NCBI GenBank assembly: GCA_951406725.2
Contig: OX597841.1
Coordinates: 26,350,001-26,414,000, forward strand
From: Octopus vulgaris
Lineage: Eukaryota
Reading direction: 5' to 3'
Length of the DNA stretch: 64,000 nt
This document shows positions 3,512 through 45,859 of the stretch, in pieces. Within the stretch, counting starts at the first letter, position 1; every line of letters starts with the position of its first letter. Under the pieces are notes generated by a model. That model was not told the origin of the DNA and searched no databases. It worked only from the letters and a program-made list of their open reading frames with translations. Both the position numbers and the translations under genes were made by a program.

Positions 3512-3907
3512 GGAATTGGGATTGGAAGCACTCCGTCGGTTGCGACGACGAGGGTTCCGGTTGATCAGAATCAACGGAACAGCCTGCTCGTGAAATTAAC
3601 GTGCAAGTGGTTGAGCACTCCACAGACACGTGCACCCTTAACGTAGTTCTCGGGGATATTCAGCGTGACACAGAGAGTGACAAGGCCGGCCCTTTGAAAT
3701 ACAGGTACAACAGAAACAGGAAGTAAGAGTGAGAGAAAGTTGTGGTGAAAGAGTACAGCAGGGATCACCACCATCCCCTGCCGGAGCCTCGTGGAGCTTT
3801 AGGTGTTTTCGCTCAATAAACACTCACAACGCCCGGTCTGGGAATCGAAACCGCGATCCTACGACCGCGAGTCCGCTGCCCTAACCACTAGGCCATTGCG
3901 CCTCCAC
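3512..3907 (-). mobile_element. tRNA-headed SINE, family B, full length
   Basis: Minus strand GTGGAGGCGCAATGGCCTAGTGGTTAGGG...GGTTTCGATTCCC head; 3' end GACGGAGTGCTTCCA; flanked by a 224-bp direct repeat. Confidence 0.9.
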
Positions 3908-7941: not shown

Positions 7942-8572
7942 AGCACTCCGTCGGTTACGACGGCGAGGGTTCCAGTTGATCCGATTAACGGAACAGCCTG
8001 CTTGTGAAATTAACGTGCAAGTGGCTGAGCACTCCACAGACACGTGTATCCTTGGCGTAGTTCTCGGGGAGATTCAGCGTGACGCAGAGTGTGACAAGGT
8101 TGGCCCCTTTGAAAAACAGGTACAACAGAAACAGGAAGAAAGAGTGAGAGAAAGTTGTGGTGAAAGAGTACAGCAGGGCTCACAACCACCCCCTGCAGGA
8201 GCACTCCGTCGGTTACGACGACGAGGGTTCCAGTTGATCCGAATCAACGGAACAGCCTGCTCGTGAAATTAACGTGCAAGTGGCTGAGCACTCCACAGAC
8301 ACGTGTACCCTTAACGTAGTTCTCGGGGATATTCAGCGTGACACAGAGAGTGACAAGGCCGGCCCCTTCAGATACAGGTACAACAGAAACAGGAAGTAAG
8401 AGTGAGAGAAAGTTGTGGTGAAAGAATACAGCAGGATTCACCATCATCCCCTGCTGGAGCCTCGTGGAGCTTTAGGTGTTTTCGCTCAATGAACACAACG
8501 CCCGGTCTGGGAATCGAAACCGCGATCCTACGACCGCGAGTCCGCTGCCCCAACCACTGAGCCATTGCACAT
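7942..8572 (-). mobile_element. SINE family B, head-to-tail 1.7-mer
   Basis: Full copy 8199-8572 joined to a 3' part-copy 7942-8198 at GGAGC. Confidence 0.85.
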
Positions 8573-11664: not shown

Positions 11665-12470
11665 ACACTGCCTGGCGCAGAGGGGAGAGGGCCGATGCGT
11701 TGTAGATGCTAAGCTTCATCTTCCGAGAGATATGTTTCTTTATTACCCACAAGGGGCTAAACACAGAGGGGACAAACAAGGACAAACAAAGGAATTAAGT
11801 CGATTACATCGACCCCAGTGCGTAACTGGTACTTAATTTATCGACCCCGAAAGAATGAAAGGCAAAGTCGACCTCGGCGGAATTTGAACTCAGAATGTAA
11901 CGGCAGACGAAATATGGCTACGCATTTCGCCAGGCGTGCTAACGTTTCTGCCAGCTCGCCGCCATTATCATATCATTATCATATCATATCATCTTCCGAG
12001 AGATAGAACAGTGACGCCAGAGGGGCTTCCATAGGGAGGACGTGGCCCAAGCCGAAAGACCACATTTGCTGTTGATCTCCGGAGTCAAGTCCGTATTGTT
12101 GGTGACTGTGGAACCCAGGTAGATGAAGGAGCTGACAGGCTCCACAACGTTGGGGGCTATTATGGAGAAGGGAGTGGGTCGGGCATCTCCGACATGCATC
12201 AGTTAGGTCTTCCCCCAACTCAGCTGAAAGCCAAGCTTTACTAATACCTCCTTGCAAATGGTTTGAGCATTCCTGAGCTGGTCGATCGGGTTGCTGTATT
12301 GAATGATATCGTCCGCAAACTCCTGGTCGATAAGGTAATAGTTCCCGAAGGTGACACCAGAGACCCACTGGCAAACCTGGGTGATGAGATAATCGGTGAT
12401 ATAGTCCAAGTGGTCGGGGGCGGCCACGAAGCCCTGTCTAACCCAACGTTTGATGGGAAATCAGTCTGAG
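11665..12470 (-). pseudogene. RTE-clade LINE reverse-transcriptase fragment, interrupted by a SINE
   Basis: QEFADDI, LGFQLSWGKT, VEPVSSFIYLGSTVT...EINSK, LWKPLWRH; frameshifted; diverged partial duplicate at 12575-12820 and 13230-13330. Confidence 0.8.
11733..11963 (-). mobile_element. tRNA-headed SINE, family C monomer (MetaSINE-like central domain)
   Basis: GGCGGCGAGCTGGCAGAA...GAGTTCAAATTCC head; GCCTTTCATTCTTTCGGGGTCGATAAATTAAGTACCAG core; 17-bp TSD TCATCTTCCGAGAGATA at 11716-11732 and 11989-12005. Confidence 0.9.
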
Positions 12471-12827: not shown

Positions 12828-13219
12828 GTGGAGGCGCAATGGCCCAGTGGTTAGGGTAGCGAACTCGCGGTCATAGGATCGCGGTTTCGATTCCCAGACC
12901 GGGCGTTGTGAGTGTTTATTGAGCGAAAACACCTAAAAAAGCTCCACGAGGCTCCGGCAGGGGATGGTGGTGATCCCTGCTGTACTCTTTCACCACAACT
13001 TTCTCTCACTCTTACTTCCTGTTTCTGTTGTACCTGTATGTCAAGGGGCCGGCCTTGTCACTCTCTGTGTCACGCTGAATATCCCCAAGAACTACGTTAA
13101 GGGTACACGTGTCTGTGGAGTGCTCAGCCACTGACACGTTAATTTCACGAACAGGCTGTTCCGTTGATTCGGATCGACCGGAACCCTCGTCGTCGTAACC
13201 GACGGAGTGCTTCCATCCC
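12828..13219 (+). mobile_element. SINE family B, full length
   Basis: Matches 3512-3907; 10-bp TSD AGTTCAGAGT at 12818-12827 and 13220-13229. Confidence 0.9.
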
Positions 13220-17131: not shown

Positions 17132-17595
17132 TAGCTATCATTAGCTATCATTGTGATGCACTTTTAAATGACGTTCGATTTGTGTCCACTTCTTATGTGG
17201 TTCATGTGGCGATTTTTCGTAAATCAAAATCAAAATCTGCATTTATCGATTCGCTCTGTGTTTAGTTTTTTGACGCCCACCACGACCACCACCACCACGC
17301 TTTCGTTTAGTAAGCGGATACACCATGTACCAAGCATTAACGAACGCAAAATTAGTGAAGACTGGCACTTTAAACGAAGGTCAAACGCAATGACTGCTGC
17401 AGTATGTATGCAAGTGTGTATGTGTGTATGTATGTATATCTCTTCTATTTATTAATTATAAGTCTTTCCCTGAGGAGGGAGCCGGTTTCCAACCAAGAGG
17501 CAAGGCTCCATCTTTCAGATGTAGTTAACACAGACAAATTCACATTTGGAGCTTGAGAAAATTCTGTCATATTTTTACTGTTCCATTCACAGTAA

Positions 17596-18245
17596 AGCAA
17601 AGTCGACCTCGGCGGAATTTGAACGCAAGACGTAGCGGCAGAGGAAATACCTATTTCTTTATCACCCACAAGGGGCTAAACACAGAGTGGACAAACAAGG
17701 ACAGACATAGGTATTAAGTCGATTACATCGACCCCAGTGTGTAACTGGTACTTATTTAATCGACCCCGAAAGGATGAAAGGCAAAGTCGACCTCAGCGGA
17801 ATTTGTACTCAGAACGTAACGACAGACGAAATACCCATTTCTTTATTACCCACAAGGGGCTAAACATAGAAGGGACAAACAAGGACAGACATAGGTATTA
17901 AGTCGATTACATCGACCCCAGTGCGGAACTGGTACTTATTTAATCGACCCCGAAAAGATGAAAGGCAAAGTCGACCTCGGCGGAATTTGAACTCAGGACA
18001 TAACGATAGACGAAATACCTATTTGTTTATTACCCACAAGGGGCTAAACATAGAAGGGACAAACAAGGACAGACATAGGTATTAGGTCGATTACATCGAC
18101 CCCAGTGCGTAACTGGTACTTAATTTATCGACCCCTAAAGGATGAAAGGTAAAGTCGACCTCGGCGGAATTTGAACTCACAACGTAACGGCAGACGAAAT
18201 ACCGCTAAGCATTTCGCCTGGCGTGCAAACGATTCTGCCACGGCC
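17596..18245 (-). repeat. SINE family C head-to-tail multimer, 184-bp period
   Basis: AAAGGYAAAG at 17777, 17961 and 18145; only the 5'-most unit has the tRNA head. Confidence 0.9.
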
Positions 18246-18938
18246 TCCAGACGACATTGGAATTTGTTGCAACTCTTTTGGACGGTTGGTGAATGCTGCC
18301 ATAATCCTTGCCTTCAGTTCATATTTGGTCTCTCGCACAACTGCGCTTCACACATAATAATCGAAGGGATTGCCGTCTGGGGAGTTAGGTGGCCAGATGT
18401 TGCGGGTGATGTGGTCACAAAATTGTCTGACAGCCATGACTGGGTTCCTCTGCTCGTGGGGCATGGACCAGAGTCCTGTTGCCAGACATAGGGTCTTCCA
18501 GCAATTACCCTCTCGACCCAGGACAGCACTACTTCCTCTAAGCACTTGATGTAGGCTTCCGTGTTGAGTTTGAGACTGTGGGAAGATGAATGGAGACATA
18601 ACGTTGCCATCACTTGTGATCACACCAAACACCATGATGTTCACTGGATGTTTGATTTTTATCACTCTCAATACATGTCCTCAGATTGCACTGTCCTCAC
18701 ATTAACAGCCAAACACTCTGAAATGTCCGTATTGGAGTTTCCGGTGTAAATACCTAGCAGTACAGCATGTCTTTTCCAAATTCCTGGCAGGGTGAATGGC
18801 GTACTGGTATTGTTTTTTCTCACAGACGGTGCCCAACAAGCCCTACTATACTCTGTAGTCGACAAGTTCAAAACAAGCAAAGCGCATGCGCGAAATTAAT
18901 AATATAAAATGGCGACAATTAACCCATCGCAACCAGTG
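18246..18938 (-). pseudogene. maT / DD37D transposase relic
   Basis: KHPVNIMVFGVITSDG, YVWQQDSGPC and WPPNSPDGNPFDYYV, with 37 residues between the two aspartates after frameshift correction; ends at TA 18939-18940. Confidence 0.85.
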
Positions 18939-19659: not shown

Positions 19660-20748
19660 GTAAATAACCCACTTCCTTGAAGGCAACAGACTGCTGAACC
19701 CCAACCAATATGGGTTCCGTAATCGAAGGAACTGCCTAACGCAGCTTCTGCATCACTTTCATGACATTTTGAGAGCTTTGGGAGAGGGCTCCAATACCGG
19801 TGTCATCTACATTGATTTCAGCAAGGCCTTTGACAGGGTTGATCCTCTTGAAAAAAACTATCCAATATCATTCATCATCATCATTGTTCGACCGTGGTCG
19901 AGACAATGGAATTTACCATGCTACGCCAGACCTCACGGTCCATCATGGCATCACGGAGGTCCTGTTGCTGGATGCCTGTATCCCTGGAGATTACATCAGG
20001 GTAGGAGAGTGTGCGCCCTCTGGTATTGCGAGCAGATGGCTTCCAGAGGAGAAGAGTAGAAATTACTTCTTTTTCAGCTCTACAACAATGTCCAGCAAAC
20101 TGGACTCTCCTACCCTTCACAAGAGATGACACAGGTGGCAGCTTCCAATATACCTGCACTTTGGTTGGATGGCGCTTCCACGAGAGATTTTGAGCTCTCA
20201 TAAGGAGGCGAGTGTAGGTTCCATCCAACCGCCTCTCAAGCTTCTTTGATAACGTCCAGGTTTCTGAGCCATATAGTAGAATGATCCAACATAGTGTCTC
20301 CGAAAAGTTACTACAATGGATCAAGTGTTTCCTAACAGACAGAACCCAACAGATTGTAGTCGAAAGAGTAAAATCAATCCCAGCCAAAGTCAGTAGCGAT
20401 GTTCCACAAAGAACCTTGTTGGGCCCCACTTCTTTTCATCATCTACATCAATGACATTACTGACATCACCAAGCACAGCAACATAAGAATCTTTGCAGAT
20501 GATTCCAAGATCCAGAAGGTGATCAATGAAGTGGGCCATCGGCCATGCCTTCAGTCAGATCTACTGGCTGTCATCCAACGGGCGGAAAAGAGTAATATGC
20601 TGCTGAGCGAGGATGAATTTGGGTTAATCCACTTCGGAAAAGAGGATACCTTGAAACTCTCATACTCCTTCAGGTGAAACTCTCATGGCATCCAACAACA
20701 TCAAAGACTTCGGAGTAGTTGTGGACAGCAACATAAGCTGGGCCGCTC
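19660..20748 (+). pseudogene. CR1-group LINE reverse-transcriptase fragment, interrupted by an RTE element
   Basis: QYGFRNRRNCLTQLL, VIYIDFSKAFDRVD, PLLFIIYINDI, IFADDSKI; frameshifts. Confidence 0.85.
19868..20283 (-). mobile_element. 5'-truncated RTE LINE 3' end
   Basis: ILLYGSETWTLSKKLERRLDGTYTRLL...FAGHCCR...DREVWR, stop, then (TGA)n tail; imperfect TSD ATCCAAYAT. Confidence 0.9.
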
Positions 20749-21304: not shown

Positions 21305-21675
21305 ATATACAAACACACGCACTCACAACAGTGTATGTCGCACCACTGCCAGACAATCCAATCAACGTCCCACCATGCCAGTCAGGCAGATGTCCAGGAA
21401 CAACAGCGCCGCCTCCACGACCACCACCACCAAAACAGTCACCAACACCATCACCAGCAGAAGCGGCAACACCATTACCACCACTACCTCTACGAGTAAC
21501 AACATCGCCTCTACTACAGACACCGCCACCAGTGCCACCGCCGGTACCAACAGCACTGTCACCACCACCACTACCACTGGATATACCACTATTATCATGG
21601 TAGCTACACCTGTTAGAAACACCAGCCAAATCTCCCTCAAATCACCATCTATTGTCTTATGTATGTGTATATGTA

Positions 21676-23190
21676 TGTATGAGCCAATGAAGGAGACCTA
21701 TACGTGGTAGCTAGACCTGGTAGAAATAGCAGGCAAATCTCCCTCAAATCACGGTCTTCTCTCTTATGTATGTACGTATATATATATATGTATGAGCCAA
21801 CGAGGGATACCTATACGTGGTAGGTAGACTTGGTAGAAATAGCAGGCAAATCTCCCTCAAATCACGGCTTTCTCTCTTATGTATGTACGTATATATATAT
21901 ATGTATGAGCCAACGAGGGATACCTATACGTGGTAGGTAGACTTGGTAGAAATAGCAGGCAAATCTCCCTCAAATCACGGTCTTCTCTCTTATGTATGTA
22001 CGTATATATATATATGTATGAGCCAACGAGGGATACCTATACGTGGTAGGTAGACTTGGTAGAAATAGCAGGCAAATCTCCCTCAAATCACGGTCTTCTC
22101 TCTTATGTATGTACGTATATATATATATGTATGAGCCAACGAGGGATACCTATACGTGGTAGGTAGACTTGGTAGAAATAGCAGGCAAATCTCCCTCAAA
22201 TCACGGCCTTCTCTCTTATGTATGTACGTATATATATATATGTATGAGCCAACGAGGGATACCTATACGTGGTAGGTAGACTTGGTAGAAATAGCAGGCA
22301 AATCTCCCTCAAATCACGGTCTTCTCTCTTATGTATGTACGTATATATATATGTATGAGCCAACGAGGGATACCTATACGTGGTAGGTAGACTTGGTAGA
22401 AATAGCAGGCAAATCTCCCTCAAATCACGGTCTTCTCTCTTTGTATGTATGTATGTATGTATGTATGAGCCAATGAGGGAGACCTGTACGTGATAGCTAG
22501 ATCTGGTATAAACAGCAGGCAAATCTCCCTCAAATCACGGCCTTCTCTCTTATGTATATATATATATATATATGTATGAGCCAACGAGGGATACCTATAC
22601 GTGGTAGGTAGACTTGGTAGAAATAGCAGGCAAATCTCCCTCAAATCACGGCCTTCTCTCTTATGTATGTACGTATATATATATATATGTATGAGCCAAC
22701 GAGGGATACCTATACGTGGTAGGTAGACTTGGTAGAAATAGCAGGCAAATCTCCTTCAAATCACGGCCTTCTCTCTTATGTATGTACGTATATATATATA
22801 TGTATGAGCCAACGAGGGATACCTATACGTGGTAGGTAGACTTGGTAGAAATAGCAGGCAAATCTCCCTCAAATCACGGTCTTCTCTCTTTGTATGTATG
22901 TATGTATGTATGTATGTATGTATGTATGTATGAGCCAATGAGGGAGACCTGTACGTGATAGCTAGATCTGGTATAAACAGCAGGCAAATCTCCCTCAAAT
23001 CACGGCCTTCTCTCTTATGTATGTATGTATATATATATATGTATGAGCCAATGAGGGATACCTATACGTGGTAGGTAGATCTGGTAGAAATAGCAGGCAA
23101 ATCTCCATCACATCACAGCCTTCTGTCTTGTGTATGTATATATGTTTGTATGAACCAATGAGAGCAGCCAAATCTCCCTCAAATTACAGT
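21676..23190. repeat. ~115-120-bp satellite, about 13 units
   Basis: Unit GTATGAGCCAACGAGGGATACCTATACGTGGTAGGTAGACTTGGTAGAAATAGCAGGCAAATCTCCCTCAAATCACGG...; related units at 11200-11380, 58525-58830, 59745-60740, 62460-62545. Confidence 0.95.
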
Positions 23191-26059: not shown

Positions 26060-26818
26060 ACTCTTTTTCACTTGTTTCAGTCAGTTGACTGCGGCCATGC
26101 TGGAGCACCGCCTTTAGTCGATCCAATCGACCCCGGGACTTATTCTTTGTAAGCCCAGTACTTATTCTATCGGTCTCTTTTTGCCGAACCGCTAATTGAC
26201 GGGGACGTAAACACACCAGCATCGGTTGTCAAGCAATACTAGGGGGACAAACACAGACACACAAACACACACACACATACATATATAAAGGGTAAAGACC
26301 CCCTTCGGTCATGAATGACCATGGGATTGCACCTAGAAAGTTACCCTCCCAGACACAAGTCCGGGCAGGGTTGTTTATGGAAGACCAGCAGTCGCCCATG
26401 CATACCAGCTTCCCCTCTCCACGCCACCAGTGTTATCCAAGGGAAAGACAAAGGTCGATACAGCTTGGAACCATTGACGTCGCAACTCATTTTTACAGCT
26501 GAGTGAACTGGAGCAACGTGAAATAAAGTGCCTTGCTCGAGAACACAACACGCAGCCTGGTCCGGGATTTGAGCTCACAACCTCACGATCGTAAGCTCGA
26601 CGGTCTAACCACTGAGCCATGCGCCTTCACATACATATACATATATACATATTTACGACGGGCTTCTTTCAGTTTCCGTCTACCAAATCCACTCACAAGG
26701 CATTGGTCGGCCCGAGACTATAGCAGAAGACACTTGCCCAAGATGCCACGCAGTGGGACTGAACCCGGAACCATGTGGTTGGTTAGCAAGCTACTTACCA
26801 CACAGCCACTCCTGCGCT
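26060..26818 (-). mobile_element. SINE family A with nested SINE family E
   Basis: Tail 26060-26280, head 26655-26818. Confidence 0.85.
26287..26630 (-). mobile_element. tRNA-headed SINE, family E
   Basis: GTGAAGGCGCATGGCTCAGTGGTTAGA head; CACGTTGCTCCAGT body shared with family D; different 3' tail ending CTTTACCCTTTA. Confidence 0.8.
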
Positions 26819-26837
26819 TATATAGTCTCTTTCTTTA

Positions 26838-27068
26838 AGGCGGCGAACTGGCAGAAACGTTAGCACGCCGGGCGAAATGCGTAGCCGTATTTCGTCTGCC
26901 GTTACGTTCTGAGTTCAAATTCCGCCGAGGTCGACTTAACCTTTCATCCTTTCGGTGTCGATAAATTAAGTACCAGTTACGCACTGGGGTCGATGTAATC
27001 GACTAAATCCATCCGTCTGTCCTTGTTTCGTTCCCTCTGTGTTTAGCCCCTTGTGGATAGTAAAAAAA
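26838..27068 (+). mobile_element. SINE family C monomer
   Basis: Full head and tail; TATAGTCTC present on both sides. Confidence 0.9.
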
Positions 27069-27289
27069 TTTATATAGTCTCCTTCTTTTCCGATGCACTC
27101 GGTCCAGCGGTCCACACGCTTGCGTATTCCTTCCAAGAAGAAGGTTTTCGGTCGGTCGCGCAACCATTTATGCAGCGTTTCCTTCACATCTCCATCCGTA
27201 GGAAATCGACGACCTCGTAAACCACCTTTGAGCGGTCCAAAGATATGACAGCCAGAAGGCGAGATCTGGGCTGTAGTGAAGCGTGTTCT

Positions 27290-27520
27290 TATTTCTTTAC
27301 TACCCACAAGGGGCTAAACATAGAGGAGACAATCAAGGACAGACAAAGGGATTAAGTCGATTACATCGACCCCAGTGCGTAACTGGTACTTAATTTATCG
27401 ACCCCCGAAAGGATGAAAGGCCAAGTGACCTCGGCGGAATTTGAACTCAGAACGCAGCGACGGACGAAATACCACAAAGCATTTCGCCCGGCGTGCTAAC
27501 GTTTCTGCCAGCTCGCCACC
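27290..27520 (-). mobile_element. SINE family C monomer
   Basis: 16-bp TSD TAGTGAAGCGTGTTCT at 27274-27289 and 27521-27536. Confidence 0.92.
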
Positions 27521-27908
27521 TAGTGAAGCGTGTTCTAGTCCCTCAAAACCCAATTGGTTAATGGTTTCAACGGTCTGGGCGCCCCTGTGTGTGGGCGTGC
27601 ATTGTCATGCAACAACAAAAGCTTCTTTGACAATAGGCTTATGCGTTTGGTACCGATTGCTGGCTTCAGTTTGTTGTATCTAGCACAGTTGATCGTACAC
27701 CCCTTTTCCAGAGAAATCGGATCACTGCCCTTTGTTCTTCTTTGGTGCGCATTGCTAGTGAAGCAATCATGCAGTGAAGCAACCACTGTAAAGCTAGATA
27801 GAATAATGGCGCGATTACGCTCAAACTTCAATCACGTGACCACTATAGTACCAACTAGCTATAAGCACGCATGCGCAGAAGGCAGTGCGACAATAATAGA
27901 TATGTTAT

Positions 27909-28230
27909 GGCGGCGAGCTGGCAGAAACGTCAGCACGCCGGGCGAAATGCTTAGCCGTATTTCGTCTGCCGTTACGTTCTGAGTTCAAATTCCGCCGAGG
28001 TCGACTTTGCCTTTCATTCTTTCGTGGTCGATAAATTAAGTACCAGTCACGCACTGGGGTCGATACAATCGACTTAATACCTATATCTGTCCTTGTTTGT
28101 CCCCTCTGTGTTTAGCCCCTTGTGGGTAGAAAAGAAATAGGTATTTCGTCTGCCGTTACGTTCTGAGTTCAAATTCCGCCGAGGTCGACTTTGCCTTTCA
28201 TTCTTTCGTGGTCGATAAATTAAGTACCAG
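27909..28230 (+). mobile_element. SINE family C 1.5-mer
   Basis: Monomer joined by AAGAAATA|GGTATTTCG at ~28140 to a second partial unit. Confidence 0.88.
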
Positions 28231-28269
28231 TCGATAAATTAAGAACCATTTCCAGAGGTCTCTAAATAT

Positions 28270-29245
28270 TCGTTTCTACTCTAGGCGCAAGGCTCGAAAT
28301 TATCGAGGAGTAGGCCAGTCGATTATATCGACTCCAGTGCGTAACTGGTACTTAATTTATCGACCCCGAAAGGATGAAAGGCAAAGTCGAACTCGGCGGA
28401 ATTTGAACTCGGAACGTGAAGACAGACGAAATACTTATTTCTTTACTACCCACAAGAGGCTAAACAGAGAGGGGACAAACAAGGACAGACAAACGGATTA
28501 AGTCGATTACATCGACCCCAGTGCGTAACTGGTACTTATTTAATCGACCCTGAAAGGATGAAAGGCAAAGTCGAACTCGGCGGAATTTGAACTCGGAACG
28601 TGAAGACAGACGAAATACCTATTTCTTTACTACCCACAAGAGGCTAAACACAGAGGGGACAAACAAGGACAGACAAACGGATTAAGTCGATTACATCGAC
28701 CCCAGTGCGTAACTGGTACTTATTTAATCGACCCTGAAAGGATGAAAGGCAAAGTCGAACTCGGCGGAATTTGAACTCACAACGTAGCGGCAGACGAAAT
28801 ACCTATTTCTTTACTACCCACAAGAGGCTAAACACAGAGGGGACAAACAAGGACAAATAGACGGATTAAGTCGATTATATCGACTCCAGTGTGTAACTGG
28901 TAGTTAATTTATCGACCCCGAAAGTACGAAAGGCAAAGTCGAACTCGGCGGAATTTGAACTCAGAGCGTAACGGCAGACGAAATACCTATTTCTTTACTA
29001 CCCACAAGGGACTTAACACAGAGGAGACAAACAAGGACAGACAAACAGAGTAAATCGATTGTATCGACCCCAGTGCGCAACTGGTACTTGTTTAATCGAC
29101 CCCGAAAGGATGAAAGGCAAAGTCGAACTCAGCGGAATTTGAACTCAGAACATGAAGACAGACGAAATATCTATTTCTTTACCACCCACAAGGGGCTTAA
29201 CACAGAGGGGACAAACAAGGACAGACAAACGGATTAAGTCGATTA
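28270..29245 (-). repeat. SINE family C multimer, about 5.3 units of 184 bp
   Basis: AAAGGCAAAG at 28377, 28561, 28745, 28929 and 29113; 3'-most unit carries the alternative tail seen at 33025. Confidence 0.92.
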
Positions 29246-29670
29246 ATAAGGCAACGAGCTGACAGAATCTTTACCATGCCAGGGATTATGCTTACAGGCT
29301 TTTCGTCCATCTGGTATTCAGCGCTCAATTTCTACCGAGCCCTACTTTCACTTTCATATTTTCGGGGTCCATAAAATAAGTACTATTTGGGCACTGTGAT
29401 TGATGTAAACGACTTGCCCTCTGTACTCTGAAATTGCTGGACTTCAAGTTTCACTTGAAAAGGAAATTGAGAGTGGAGAGGCAGGTGCTGTCTCCGAGTG
29501 AGGTTATTGAAAGGTGGGTGAAAGTTGCGAAAACGGCAGGAGTCCTTCAGTTTTTTTAAGCCCTTTAAAAAACACTCGGAAGGCTGGACCCCCAACTTGA
29601 GCCCTCGTGATACCCTTAAAGCCAGAAACTTTTCAGCACCTTTTTGTACATAGTGCAGTCATCGAGAAGA

Positions 29671-32398: not shown

Positions 32399-32666
32399 GG
32401 TCTACAAGAAGGCCACCCCAACGTAAGATCTGCAGCTTGATGGTCACTGCACCTGTCTTAGCCTGCAAAGCCAGTGGTCAGACCTCGAAGGTTAAAGCGT
32501 AGGATTGAACTCCGTGGACTGGCTCCCAATTTAAAACTACGTAGCACTAGCAGAAAGAAAAGCCATACGCCGTCAAGGGTAGATATTTGGACTCCGAACT
32601 AAAAGCCGGAAGAAATATCGCTAATTATTTTTTCCGGCGTGATGACGATTCTGCCAGCACGCTGCC

Positions 32667-33021: not shown

Positions 33022-33235
33022 ATCCTTTCTGTTATAGTCACAAGGTTTGAAATATTGGGAGAGAGAACTAGTCGATTATATCGACCCCAGTATTTCACTG
33101 GTACTTAATTTATCGACCCCGAAAAGATGAAATGCAAAGTCTACCTTAGCGGAATTTGAATTCAGATCATAAGAACGGACGAAATGCCTCTAAGTAGTTT
33201 GCCCGGCGCGCTAACGTTTCCGCCAACTCGCTGCC

Positions 33236-33275
<40 letters not shown>

Positions 33276-33540
33276 TAATAATAATAATGATAATGATAAT
33301 AATAATAACTGTAATGATCCTTTCTGTTATAGTCACAAGGCTTGAAATATTGGGAGAGAGGACTAGTCGATTACATCGACCCCAGTATTTTACTGGTACT
33401 TAATTTAACGACCCGAAAAGTTTGCAAAGTCGACCTCAGCGGAATTTGAATTCAGAACGTAAGAACGAACGAAACGCCTCTAAGTAGTTTGTCCGGCGTG
33501 CTAACGGTTCCGCCAACTCGCTGCCTTAATAATAATAATA

Positions 33541-33571
<31 letters not shown>

Positions 33572-33830
33572 TGATAATAATAATAATAATAATGATAATA
33601 ATAATAATGATAATAATAATAACAATAATAATAATTTCTGCTAAAGGCACAACGTTTAGAATTTTGAGGGAGAGTTCTAGTCAATACTCAGCTGGTACTC
33701 AATTTATCGATCACGAAAGGATCAAAGGCAAAATCGACCTCGGCGGAATTTAAACCCAGAACGTAAAGACGGACGAAATGCCGCTAAGCATTTCGTCCGC
33801 TATGCTAACGATTCTACCTGTTTGCCGCTT
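33022..33830 (-). mobile_element. three diverged SINE family C variants (alternative tail) interleaved with (AAT)n
   Basis: 33022-33236 and 33318-33526 form a local duplication; third copy at 33637-33830. Confidence 0.8.
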
Positions 33831-42852: not shown

Positions 42853-43316
42853 TGAATGTATGCATGTGTATGTATGTATGTGTATATATGTATGCATGTG
42901 TATATATGTATGCATGTGTATATATGTATGTGTATGTATGTATGTGTATATATGTATATATATGTATGTGTATATATATATATAAGTGTATATATATGTA
43001 TATATATATAAATGTATATGTATATATATATATATATATATATAGAAATGTATATATATATATGTATGTGTGTATATATATATATATGTAAAAGTATATA
43101 TTTGTGTATGTATATGAATACATACATATGTATTTATATATATATGTATGTACATGTATGTATGTATATATATATGTGTGTATATATTTTGCCTTTCATC
43201 CTTTCGGGGTCGATAAATAAAGTACCAGTTACGCACTGGGGTCGATGTAATCGACTTAATCCGCTTGTCTGTTCTTGTTTGTCCCCTCTATGTTTAGCCC
43301 CTTGTGGGCAATAAAG

Positions 43317-43352
<36 letters not shown>

Positions 43353-44612: not shown

Positions 44613-45857
44613 TTGGCTTGTCCGGAAAGTTCGTGCCGATTTTTAAAGGAAACAAAAATGCAATAAATACTTGCCATTACATTTTTAATTAACCAAATAT
44701 GAACCATTTTGTTCATTTTGTTGCACAATGCGTCTCCATCTTTCCTTTAACTTGAAAATACCCTCTTCCCAGAACTGAGGTGGTTTCATGGCAAAGTGTT
44801 CATCAATGTGTCTTTTCATGTCATCCAAGGAATTGAAATTTTTGCCATTAAGACTATTCTGCAGAGACCTGAATAAGTGGAAATCCGAAGGAGCAATACC
44901 TGGTGAATATGTAGGGTGGGGTAACACATGCCAGTCGAGCTGCAGCAATTTTTGTCTGGTTCTCAAAGCATCAAGTGCCGAAAATAAACTTTCTTATTTT
45001 CCATTTTAAAGGGTTACAGAATTAACACAGGTTATAGGAACATAAATCTTCTTCCACAAAAAGACAGCTTAAACTGTGGTCTAAATGGAGGTGTAGTGAA
45101 ACCCTATTTTATGGGTCTCCATCTTTCCTTTAACTTGAAAATACCCTCTTCCCAGAACTGAGGTGGTTTCATGGCAAAGAATTCATCAAGGTATCTTTTT
45201 ACGTCATCCAAGGAATTGAAATTTTTACCATTAAGACTATTCTGCAGAGACCTGAATAAGTGGAAATCCGATGGAGCAATATCTGGTGAATATGTAGGGT
45301 GGGGTAACACATGCCAGCCGAGCTGCAGCAATTTTTGTCTGGTTCCCAAAGCATCACGTACCGAAAATGAACTTTCTTATCTTCCATTTTAAAGGGTTAC
45401 AGAATTAACACAGGTTATAGGAACATAAATCTTCTTCCACGAAAAGATAGCTTAAACTGTGCTCTAAATGGAGGTGTAGTCAAATCCTATTTTATGGACT
45501 CAACCATTTTCTAAAATAAGTCGAAAGGTAAGCTACTATAAATCGGCACAAACTTTCCAGACAACCCAATATCTTAAGAGAAAAGCAGAGCTAGCTTAAA
45601 CTGTGCTCTAAATGGAGGTGTAGTCAAATCCTATTTTATGGACTCAACCGTGTTCTAAAATAAGTCAAAAGGTAAGCTACTATAAATCGGCACGAACTTT
45701 CCAGACAATCCAATATCTTAAGAGAAAAGCAGAGCTAGCTTAAACTGTGCTCTAAATGGAGGTGTAGTCAAATCCTATTTTATGGACTCAACCATTTTCT
45801 AAAATAAGTCGAAAGGTAAGCTACTATAAATCGGCACAAACTTTCCGGACATCCCAA
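44613..45857 (-). mobile_element. non-autonomous mariner deletion derivative with internal duplication and triplicated end
   Basis: TA-TTGGCTTGTCCGGAAAGTTCGTGCCGATTT TIR and three inverted partners; VLPHPTYSPDIAPSDFHLFRSLQN-type motif present twice. Confidence 0.9.
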
Positions 45858-45859
45858 TA

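Follow-up and report, generated by a model that had tools for sequence, protein, structure and literature searches.

The DNA analysed here, a window of 64,000 nt taken as a whole, contains a SINE family of 231 nt, designated family C, which consists of a 47-nt head and a 184-nt remainder. Three full monomers were found: M1 at 11735-11963 (minus strand; 17-bp TSD, with a microsatellite between TSD and head), M2 at 26839-27069 (plus strand; TSD of 12 bp exact, or 19 bp with one mismatch) and M3 at 27290-27520 (minus strand; 16-bp TSD), the last of which defines the family-C 3' end as AAAGAAATA. Another copy, at 43188-43321 (plus strand), is 5'-truncated with its tail intact and sits in a TA microsatellite. 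Both a TSD and the intact family-C 3' end were present in 3/3 full monomers in the window, which thereby display the dispersed copies, TSDs and fixed 3' end expected of a tRNA-derived SINE. Words resembling A and B boxes lie at SINE positions 11-21 and 73-85, judged by eye against the box consensus, and neither ARAGORN nor Rfam called a tRNA in the family-C head. Position 48, which we take from the tRNA layout to be the anticodon-arm region although neither program calls a tRNA there, belongs to the loop that closes a long hairpin at the 5' side. In the headed copy of array A27 the hairpin apex, GAAATGC-ttagcc-GTATTTC, spans 27944-27964 (plus strand), with the unit boundary at 27956. The family-C core presumably resembles the CORE domains of invertebrate SINEs. 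A LINE with the family-C tail was not found within the window; a weak RT match was obtained in 1 of the 12 reading frames scanned out of 83 listed. A weak reverse-transcriptase remnant lies at 19664-20059 (plus strand; PF00078, E 1.3e-5, under the curated cut-off).

In addition to the monomers, SINE positions 48-231 are repeated head to tail in three arrays, confirming the description of the family given by an earlier sequence-only reading of this DNA. Array A17 (17594-18240, minus strand) comprises a head from which the first 10 nt are missing, followed by three units and a partial unit reaching position ~103, and array A27 (27909-28232, plus strand) comprises the head, one full unit and a 93-nt partial unit followed by a 19-bp duplication; both are TSD-less. 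Array A28 (28267-29245, minus strand) is 5'-truncated and head-less, and contains five junctions. It runs from a partial tail (unit 0, SINE positions 158-231, at 29172-29245) through four full 184-nt units (units 1 to 4 at 28988-29171, 28804-28987, 28620-28803 and 28436-28619) to the core of a fifth (unit 5, at 28317-28435; SINE positions 48-166, which are common to families C and D) and closes with the tail of sister family D at 28267-28316, all on the minus strand. The closing tail resembles the family D tails at 33070 and 33365 (blastn 77% over 31 nt, E 0.08). Thus the assignment of all of 28270-29245 to family C, made from the letters alone, holds for the part 28317-29245, beyond which the sister family's tail begins. 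The exact 184-bp period claimed for the longer arrays was borne out by TRF (period 184, 3.3 and 5.0 copies, 91% matches) and by the complete internal units of the three arrays, 6/6 of which measure 184 nt. Runs of four T on the sense strand number one in A17, one in A27 and none in A28, and intact units have none.

The surroundings of the arrays are rich in other repeats. Sister family D appears older and has the same head and core with another tail; its copies lie within ATT microsatellites, at 29250-29420 on the plus strand and at 32585-32666, 33070-33235, 33365-33525 and 33692-33829 on the minus strand. Within 2.4 kb there are two inverted, tail-to-tail SINE pairs, M2 and M3 220 bp apart and A27 and A28 35 bp apart, and these pairs (26839-27520 and 27909-29245) could give long double-stranded RNA if transcribed. 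A sub-threshold match to MIR8007 was dismissed as the inverted pair of A27 and A28. Where A27 is truncated at its 3' end, the 19-bp tandem duplication occupies 28211-28248; it resembles the product of slippage, either when reverse transcription begins or at a repair join. Elsewhere, the A17 head joins, at a shared short word, a broken remnant at 18230-18600 (minus strand), which we presume from its resemblance to be a Tc1/mariner transposase; the remnant is without its 3' end, which points to a join of the repair type accompanied by a deletion. Another dispersed repeat family forms a 258-bp two-copy tandem at 7942-8460 and occurs also at 3527-3784 and 12954-13211. Local tandem repeats were further observed at 21598-23138 (113 bp, 13.6 copies), 44728-45497 (383 bp, two copies) and 45448-45859 (144 bp, 2.9 copies), and the presence of several such repeats indicates that the region duplicates readily.

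All nine junctions in the window join the tail end to position 48, with the consensus AAAGAAATA followed by GGTATTTCG. Four of them are exact, five carry one substitution and none has an indel, in agreement with the earlier claim of a common consensus; likewise, the placing of the junction in a stem loop was upheld by a stem predicted at a probability of ~1.0. The window has 13 complete tail ends, and at 9 of them the sequence continues into a junction. The base at the junction is G in 8/9 cases and never C, yet C occupies position 48 in 3/5 heads; in A27 the head has C at this position and the array's own junction has G. The hexamer TATTTC occurs once in the monomer, at positions 50-55, and is the only complement to the tail GAAATA. 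A 6-mer complement would fall within 5 nt of a given site with a chance of ~0.002; the complementarity pointed out earlier is beyond chance and probably shaped the junction. Since proximity by chance is so improbable, the match likely had a causal part in one event or more. GAAAT microhomology with subsequent loss of the loop would be an equal route to a single founding event, because the 5' arm of the stem starts with the same GAAAT.

Comparison of the units gave evidence on how the arrays were built. The A28 units differ pairwise by 7-27 of 183 positions. With the young duplicate collapsed, 8 columns split 2:2 as compared with 0.6 expected for a star phylogeny, a value that rises to 3 under fivefold rate variation, and the splits conflict with each other. 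The variant pair 125T/128A is present in A17 units 2-3 and A28 units 1, 3 and 4, and missing from A17 unit 1, A28 units 2 and 5, A27 and the four non-array family-C copies. A young one-unit duplication was located in A28 at 28368-28778 (minus strand), where a comparison at a lag of 184 gives 2 mismatches over 227 nt, after 55 over the 467 nt before them; the breakpoint of the duplication lies between SINE positions 72 and 116, away from the junction. The variant G92T (GTCGAACTC) is found in 5/5 A28 units covering position 92. The A27 units show no differences over 92 nt (positions 49-140), minority variants included, as against 4-13 differences from other copies. Within-array distances (0.074 and 0.096) are slightly lower than array-monomer distances (0.093 and 0.107), and homogenisation must be called weak given so small a difference.

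These data bear on several proposals of the sequence-only reading. Of the variants it regarded as private to single arrays, G92T is upheld as common to the A28 units that cover it, and 'ACATAGGTATTA' is not confined to the array at 17.6-18.2 kb, since the 27909 copy has both underlying changes (171A and 175A) in common with A17. The per-array unit phylogeny that it suggested as a check showed the A28 units clustering apart from the other rows in 84% of bootstrap trees, and at the same time revealed the mosaic nature of the units. Repeated copying of one 184-nt template was not borne out: the arrays are heteropolymers with incompatible shared variants, and the units have the pattern of a lineage turned over through duplication and exchange. 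The alternative that had been mentioned, an inherited junction with amplification, fits the mosaic units, the mid-unit duplication and the missing TSDs better.

The ends of the arrays differ from those of the monomers. A single bounding TSD, the presence of which had been suggested as a check, was found around 0/3 arrays (at most a 4-nt match for A28) versus 3/3 full monomers, and an intact family-C 3' end terminates 0/3 arrays. A17 and A27 have the head at one end and stop within a unit at the other; A28 has no head and crosses at position 166 into the sister family D tail. Every array therefore combines a normal SINE end with an irregular one. Such a pattern is not predicted by simple priming at the family's own tail and is predicted if recombination or template switching took place within the core that the families share. 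A28, with its D tail and truncated 5' end, could be a multimer that was retrotransposed.

It had also been proposed that the RNA 3' end folds back onto the arm of the hairpin. For the intact monomer this was rejected by structure prediction, as the tail-arm pairing probability is 0 in 3/3 full-length copies and the native stem forms with a probability of ~1. The predicted pairing of the ends depends on where the RNA starts: it is 0 for starts at or before position 36, 0.89-0.96 for starts at 43-50 in the 27909 copy, and 0.79-0.83 for starts at 49-50 in M3. The proposal thus survives, as a prediction, for head-less RNA starting at 43-50 in some copies. Of the eight 184-nt units, four have a predicted end pairing of 0.8-0.99, three of 0.2-0.3 and one of 0.01. 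According to these models, the tail can pair with the arm only after the loop has been cut, and such pairing does not itself select position 48. Ribozymes were sought as well. The CUGANGA core of the hammerhead is absent from either strand of the three arrays, HDV-like folds were not found in the arrays, and Rfam gave no ribozyme up to E 10 over 26800-29500.

To follow the junction beyond the window, we used four of 24 listed sequencing runs, aligned to the headed first unit of A27 (window 27860-28139). X1 (organism A, possibly that of the window itself; probably DNA) and X13 (organism A, RNA being a guess) consist of contigs, which for X13 carry no levels; X23 and X24 are raw reads of organism E RNA, from unstranded fragmented cDNA. 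In X1, the 184-nt joint is the best supported among the listed joints that go back from the tail end, with at least 32 contigs and a depth of 2817. Among the joints listed, the letter between the two sides is G at a depth of 2273.5 and A at 300.2 of the 2817, the length being kept. Loose ends in X1 number at least 1168 before position 49 (junction consensus) versus at least 1056 before the head. At least 21 contigs in X13 contain the 184-nt joint, and junction-type loose ends (at least 575) exceed head-start ones (at least 97). In organism E RNA the joint occurs in 66 and 65 reads, i.e. ~1.8% and 2.5% of the tail-end depth. Hence the junction is widespread in organism A and present under a second species label, and is not a local accident. 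A 217-nt joint leading from the tail to position 15 was seen in 1045 reads of X23 and 553 of X24, and in one contig each of X1 and X13; a minor joint from the tail to position 24 is also present in the organism E RNA. We rejected the 217-nt joint as a second general junction, since, between the runs, it keeps the same ratio of 1.89 as another joint and goes along with three tail variants of similar share; it likely represents one expressed dimer locus or a small subfamily. Searches of public collections returned 0 matches in metagenomes and 0 in prokaryote genomes, and the three matches of 17-19 nt in viral contigs were discarded as chance, there being no wider likeness.

Altogether, the fixed junction, its abundance in the DNA run, the mosaic units, the mid-unit duplication, the sister-family tail and the missing TSDs are best explained if the arrays are tandem copies of the head-less 184-nt part of the SINE, with a junction that likely arose once or a few times, was then inherited, and spread by copying, recombination and duplication; we give this reading a probability of about 0.6. 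The founding join likely formed through the 6-bp tail complementarity, once or rarely. It would have arisen where the tail GAAATA can pair with TATTTC, probably on loop-cut RNA or on nascent cDNA, or alternatively by the GAAAT route with loss of the loop. Pol III could subsequently read through a headed array and yield multimer RNA, which is plausible because intact units are free of sense-strand four-T runs, and multi-unit stretches would reach new loci as RNA-derived or DNA copies. The shared core would allow recombination or template switching with ordinary monomers, giving the normal head of A17 and A27 and the foreign tail of A28, and units would be added in place by unequal exchange or slippage. 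In favour of an inherited junction, its length is invariant in 9/9 cases in the window and in the X1 joints listed, and the G at the junction persists despite the C in the heads, including that of A27. Moreover, the architecture is analogous to that of the sSats of squamates, as far as the accessible text describes them (PMC10702118). Against it, the identical A27 units look as a fresh copy of one RNA would, the 6-bp complementarity and the predicted end pairing would suit repeated joining too, the excess of junction-type over head-start loose ends is larger in X13 than in the DNA run X1 among the ends counted, homogenisation is weak, and only three arrays were seen whole.

A rival view is that the joint is made anew each time. 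In its general form, SINE RNA would be cut in the loop in the manner of tRNA halves and the 184-nt piece closed by the 6-bp helix, then ligated or bridged by RT, so that the same junction is remade and multimers spread without a ribozyme; this model is possible but rather unlikely. A version in which the loop-cut 3' piece pairs its ends and the partner LINE RT jumps to the tail of the same or a sibling RNA, producing mixed arrays, we consider unlikely. In its favour, the tail side of the junction is the exact retrotransposition start of the monomers, the ends are predicted to pair solely in RNA that has lost the 5' arm, and the A27 units are identical over 92 nt; jumps to sibling RNAs would yield mosaic arrays. 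End-to-end template jumping is performed by R2-type enzymes and usually inserts variable bases, whereas the nine junctions and the run joints listed show no length variation. In addition, pairing permits starts from ~43 to 50 and does not fix position 48, and the arrays are without intact family-C 3' ends and TSDs. A pile-up of RNA starts or ends is missing from X23 and X24, although such fragmented cDNA could hardly reveal one.

Two further mechanisms have less in their favour. If the LINE endonuclease nicked the apex of a resident hairpin and primed a new copy there, with the 5' end resolved by homology to the head, each event would add one unit; this accounts for the succession of a head and n units, the mosaic units and the family-C tail preceding a D-tailed body. 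Self-insertion of this kind is nevertheless improbable, as it predicts a kept target tail and an outer TSD, in conflict with the absence of TSDs from all arrays and the 3' truncation of two, and as the junction should show the target's base 48, in conflict with the C of the A27 head beside the G of its junction. Also, unit 5 of A28 has the array's G92T and family-C letters through position 166. Rolling-circle reverse transcription of a closed 184-nt RNA, akin to retrozymes lacking a ribozyme, would give the exact period and ends at arbitrary positions; moreover, one and the same 9-nt word marks both the start of A28 and its exit from family C, and the junction is seen in RNA reads. We regard it as very improbable: a circle predicts identical units, and A28 and A17 are mosaic; a circle has no head, and two arrays carry one; none of the ribozyme searches was positive; and the low share of junction reads is explained by transcribed arrays.

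Of the systems described previously, the inherited-junction reading comes closest to sSat1-3 of squamates, SINE-derived satellites with 70-290-nt units and an extended terminal unit on one side, for which the available text reports boundaries that up to thousands of loci have in common, subvariants that alternate and ~82-91% unit similarity (Vassetzky et al., PMC10702118). One of them, sSat3Ati2, has a 179-nt unit in which the body is combined with some of the head and with the LINE-derived region, mostly in 4-5 monomers, and unequal recombination or insertion at the same locus was proposed as the origin; the features given there include long homogeneous arrays and subtelomeric enrichment, with a working cut-off of at least 4 middle monomers. 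Here too, the unit (184 of 231 nt) is shorter than the SINE, TSD-flanked monomers occur in the same window, the terminal unit is extended, by the head in A17 and A27 and by the sister-family tail in A28, and boundaries are common to three window loci and, in X1, to the at least 32 contigs and 1168 loose ends. The cut-off of four middle monomers is reached by A28 and not by A17 or A27. The differences are the animal group and the SINE family, the density of arrays among monomers (9/13 tail ends run into the junction), the one array ending in the tail of a sister family, and the location of the boundary at the apex of a hairpin whose sequence there is complementary to the end of the tail, a feature that the main text of PMC10702118, as available, leaves undescribed. 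In the jerboa, a large share of Dip/B1 copies is in tandem multimers of up to eight according to the same text; there, the SINEs are full-length, whereas the units added here lack the 47-nt head.

The non-LTR retrozymes resemble the arrays in being short, non-coding, dispersed tandem repeats. The part of the report available to us describes a type I hammerhead in each unit and proposes circular RNA intermediates (bioRxiv 10.64898/2026.07.22.740005), in contrast to the family-C unit, which has no hammerhead and belongs to a SINE of the Pol III type whose monomers are flanked by TSDs. The octopus has the tRNA-derived SINEs OK, OR1 and OR2, OR1 being listed as a CORE-SINE in the text consulted (PMC4824008); by this description only, they and CORE-SINEs share with family C a tRNA-like head and a core common to families with different tails. 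The accessible portion of PMC4758252 holds nothing on arrays. The literature surveyed, largely as listings and mostly outside subscription papers such as the 1994 octopus SINE paper, contained no account of this array or of a circular SINE intermediate, and the 1994 paper may already mention tandem copies.

By analogy, the arrays most likely belong among the SINE-derived satellites and owe their junction to inheritance. As far as its available text goes, the sSat paper (PMC10702118) leaves open whether such satellites occur beyond reptiles and how the first duplication arises. Family C is likely an invertebrate case, with an abundant junction at a site that has a clear base-pairing rationale, and its founding step is testable. 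If it is true that loop-cut RNA rejoins repeatedly, tRNA-type cleavage would be linked to the birth of retroposons and satellites.
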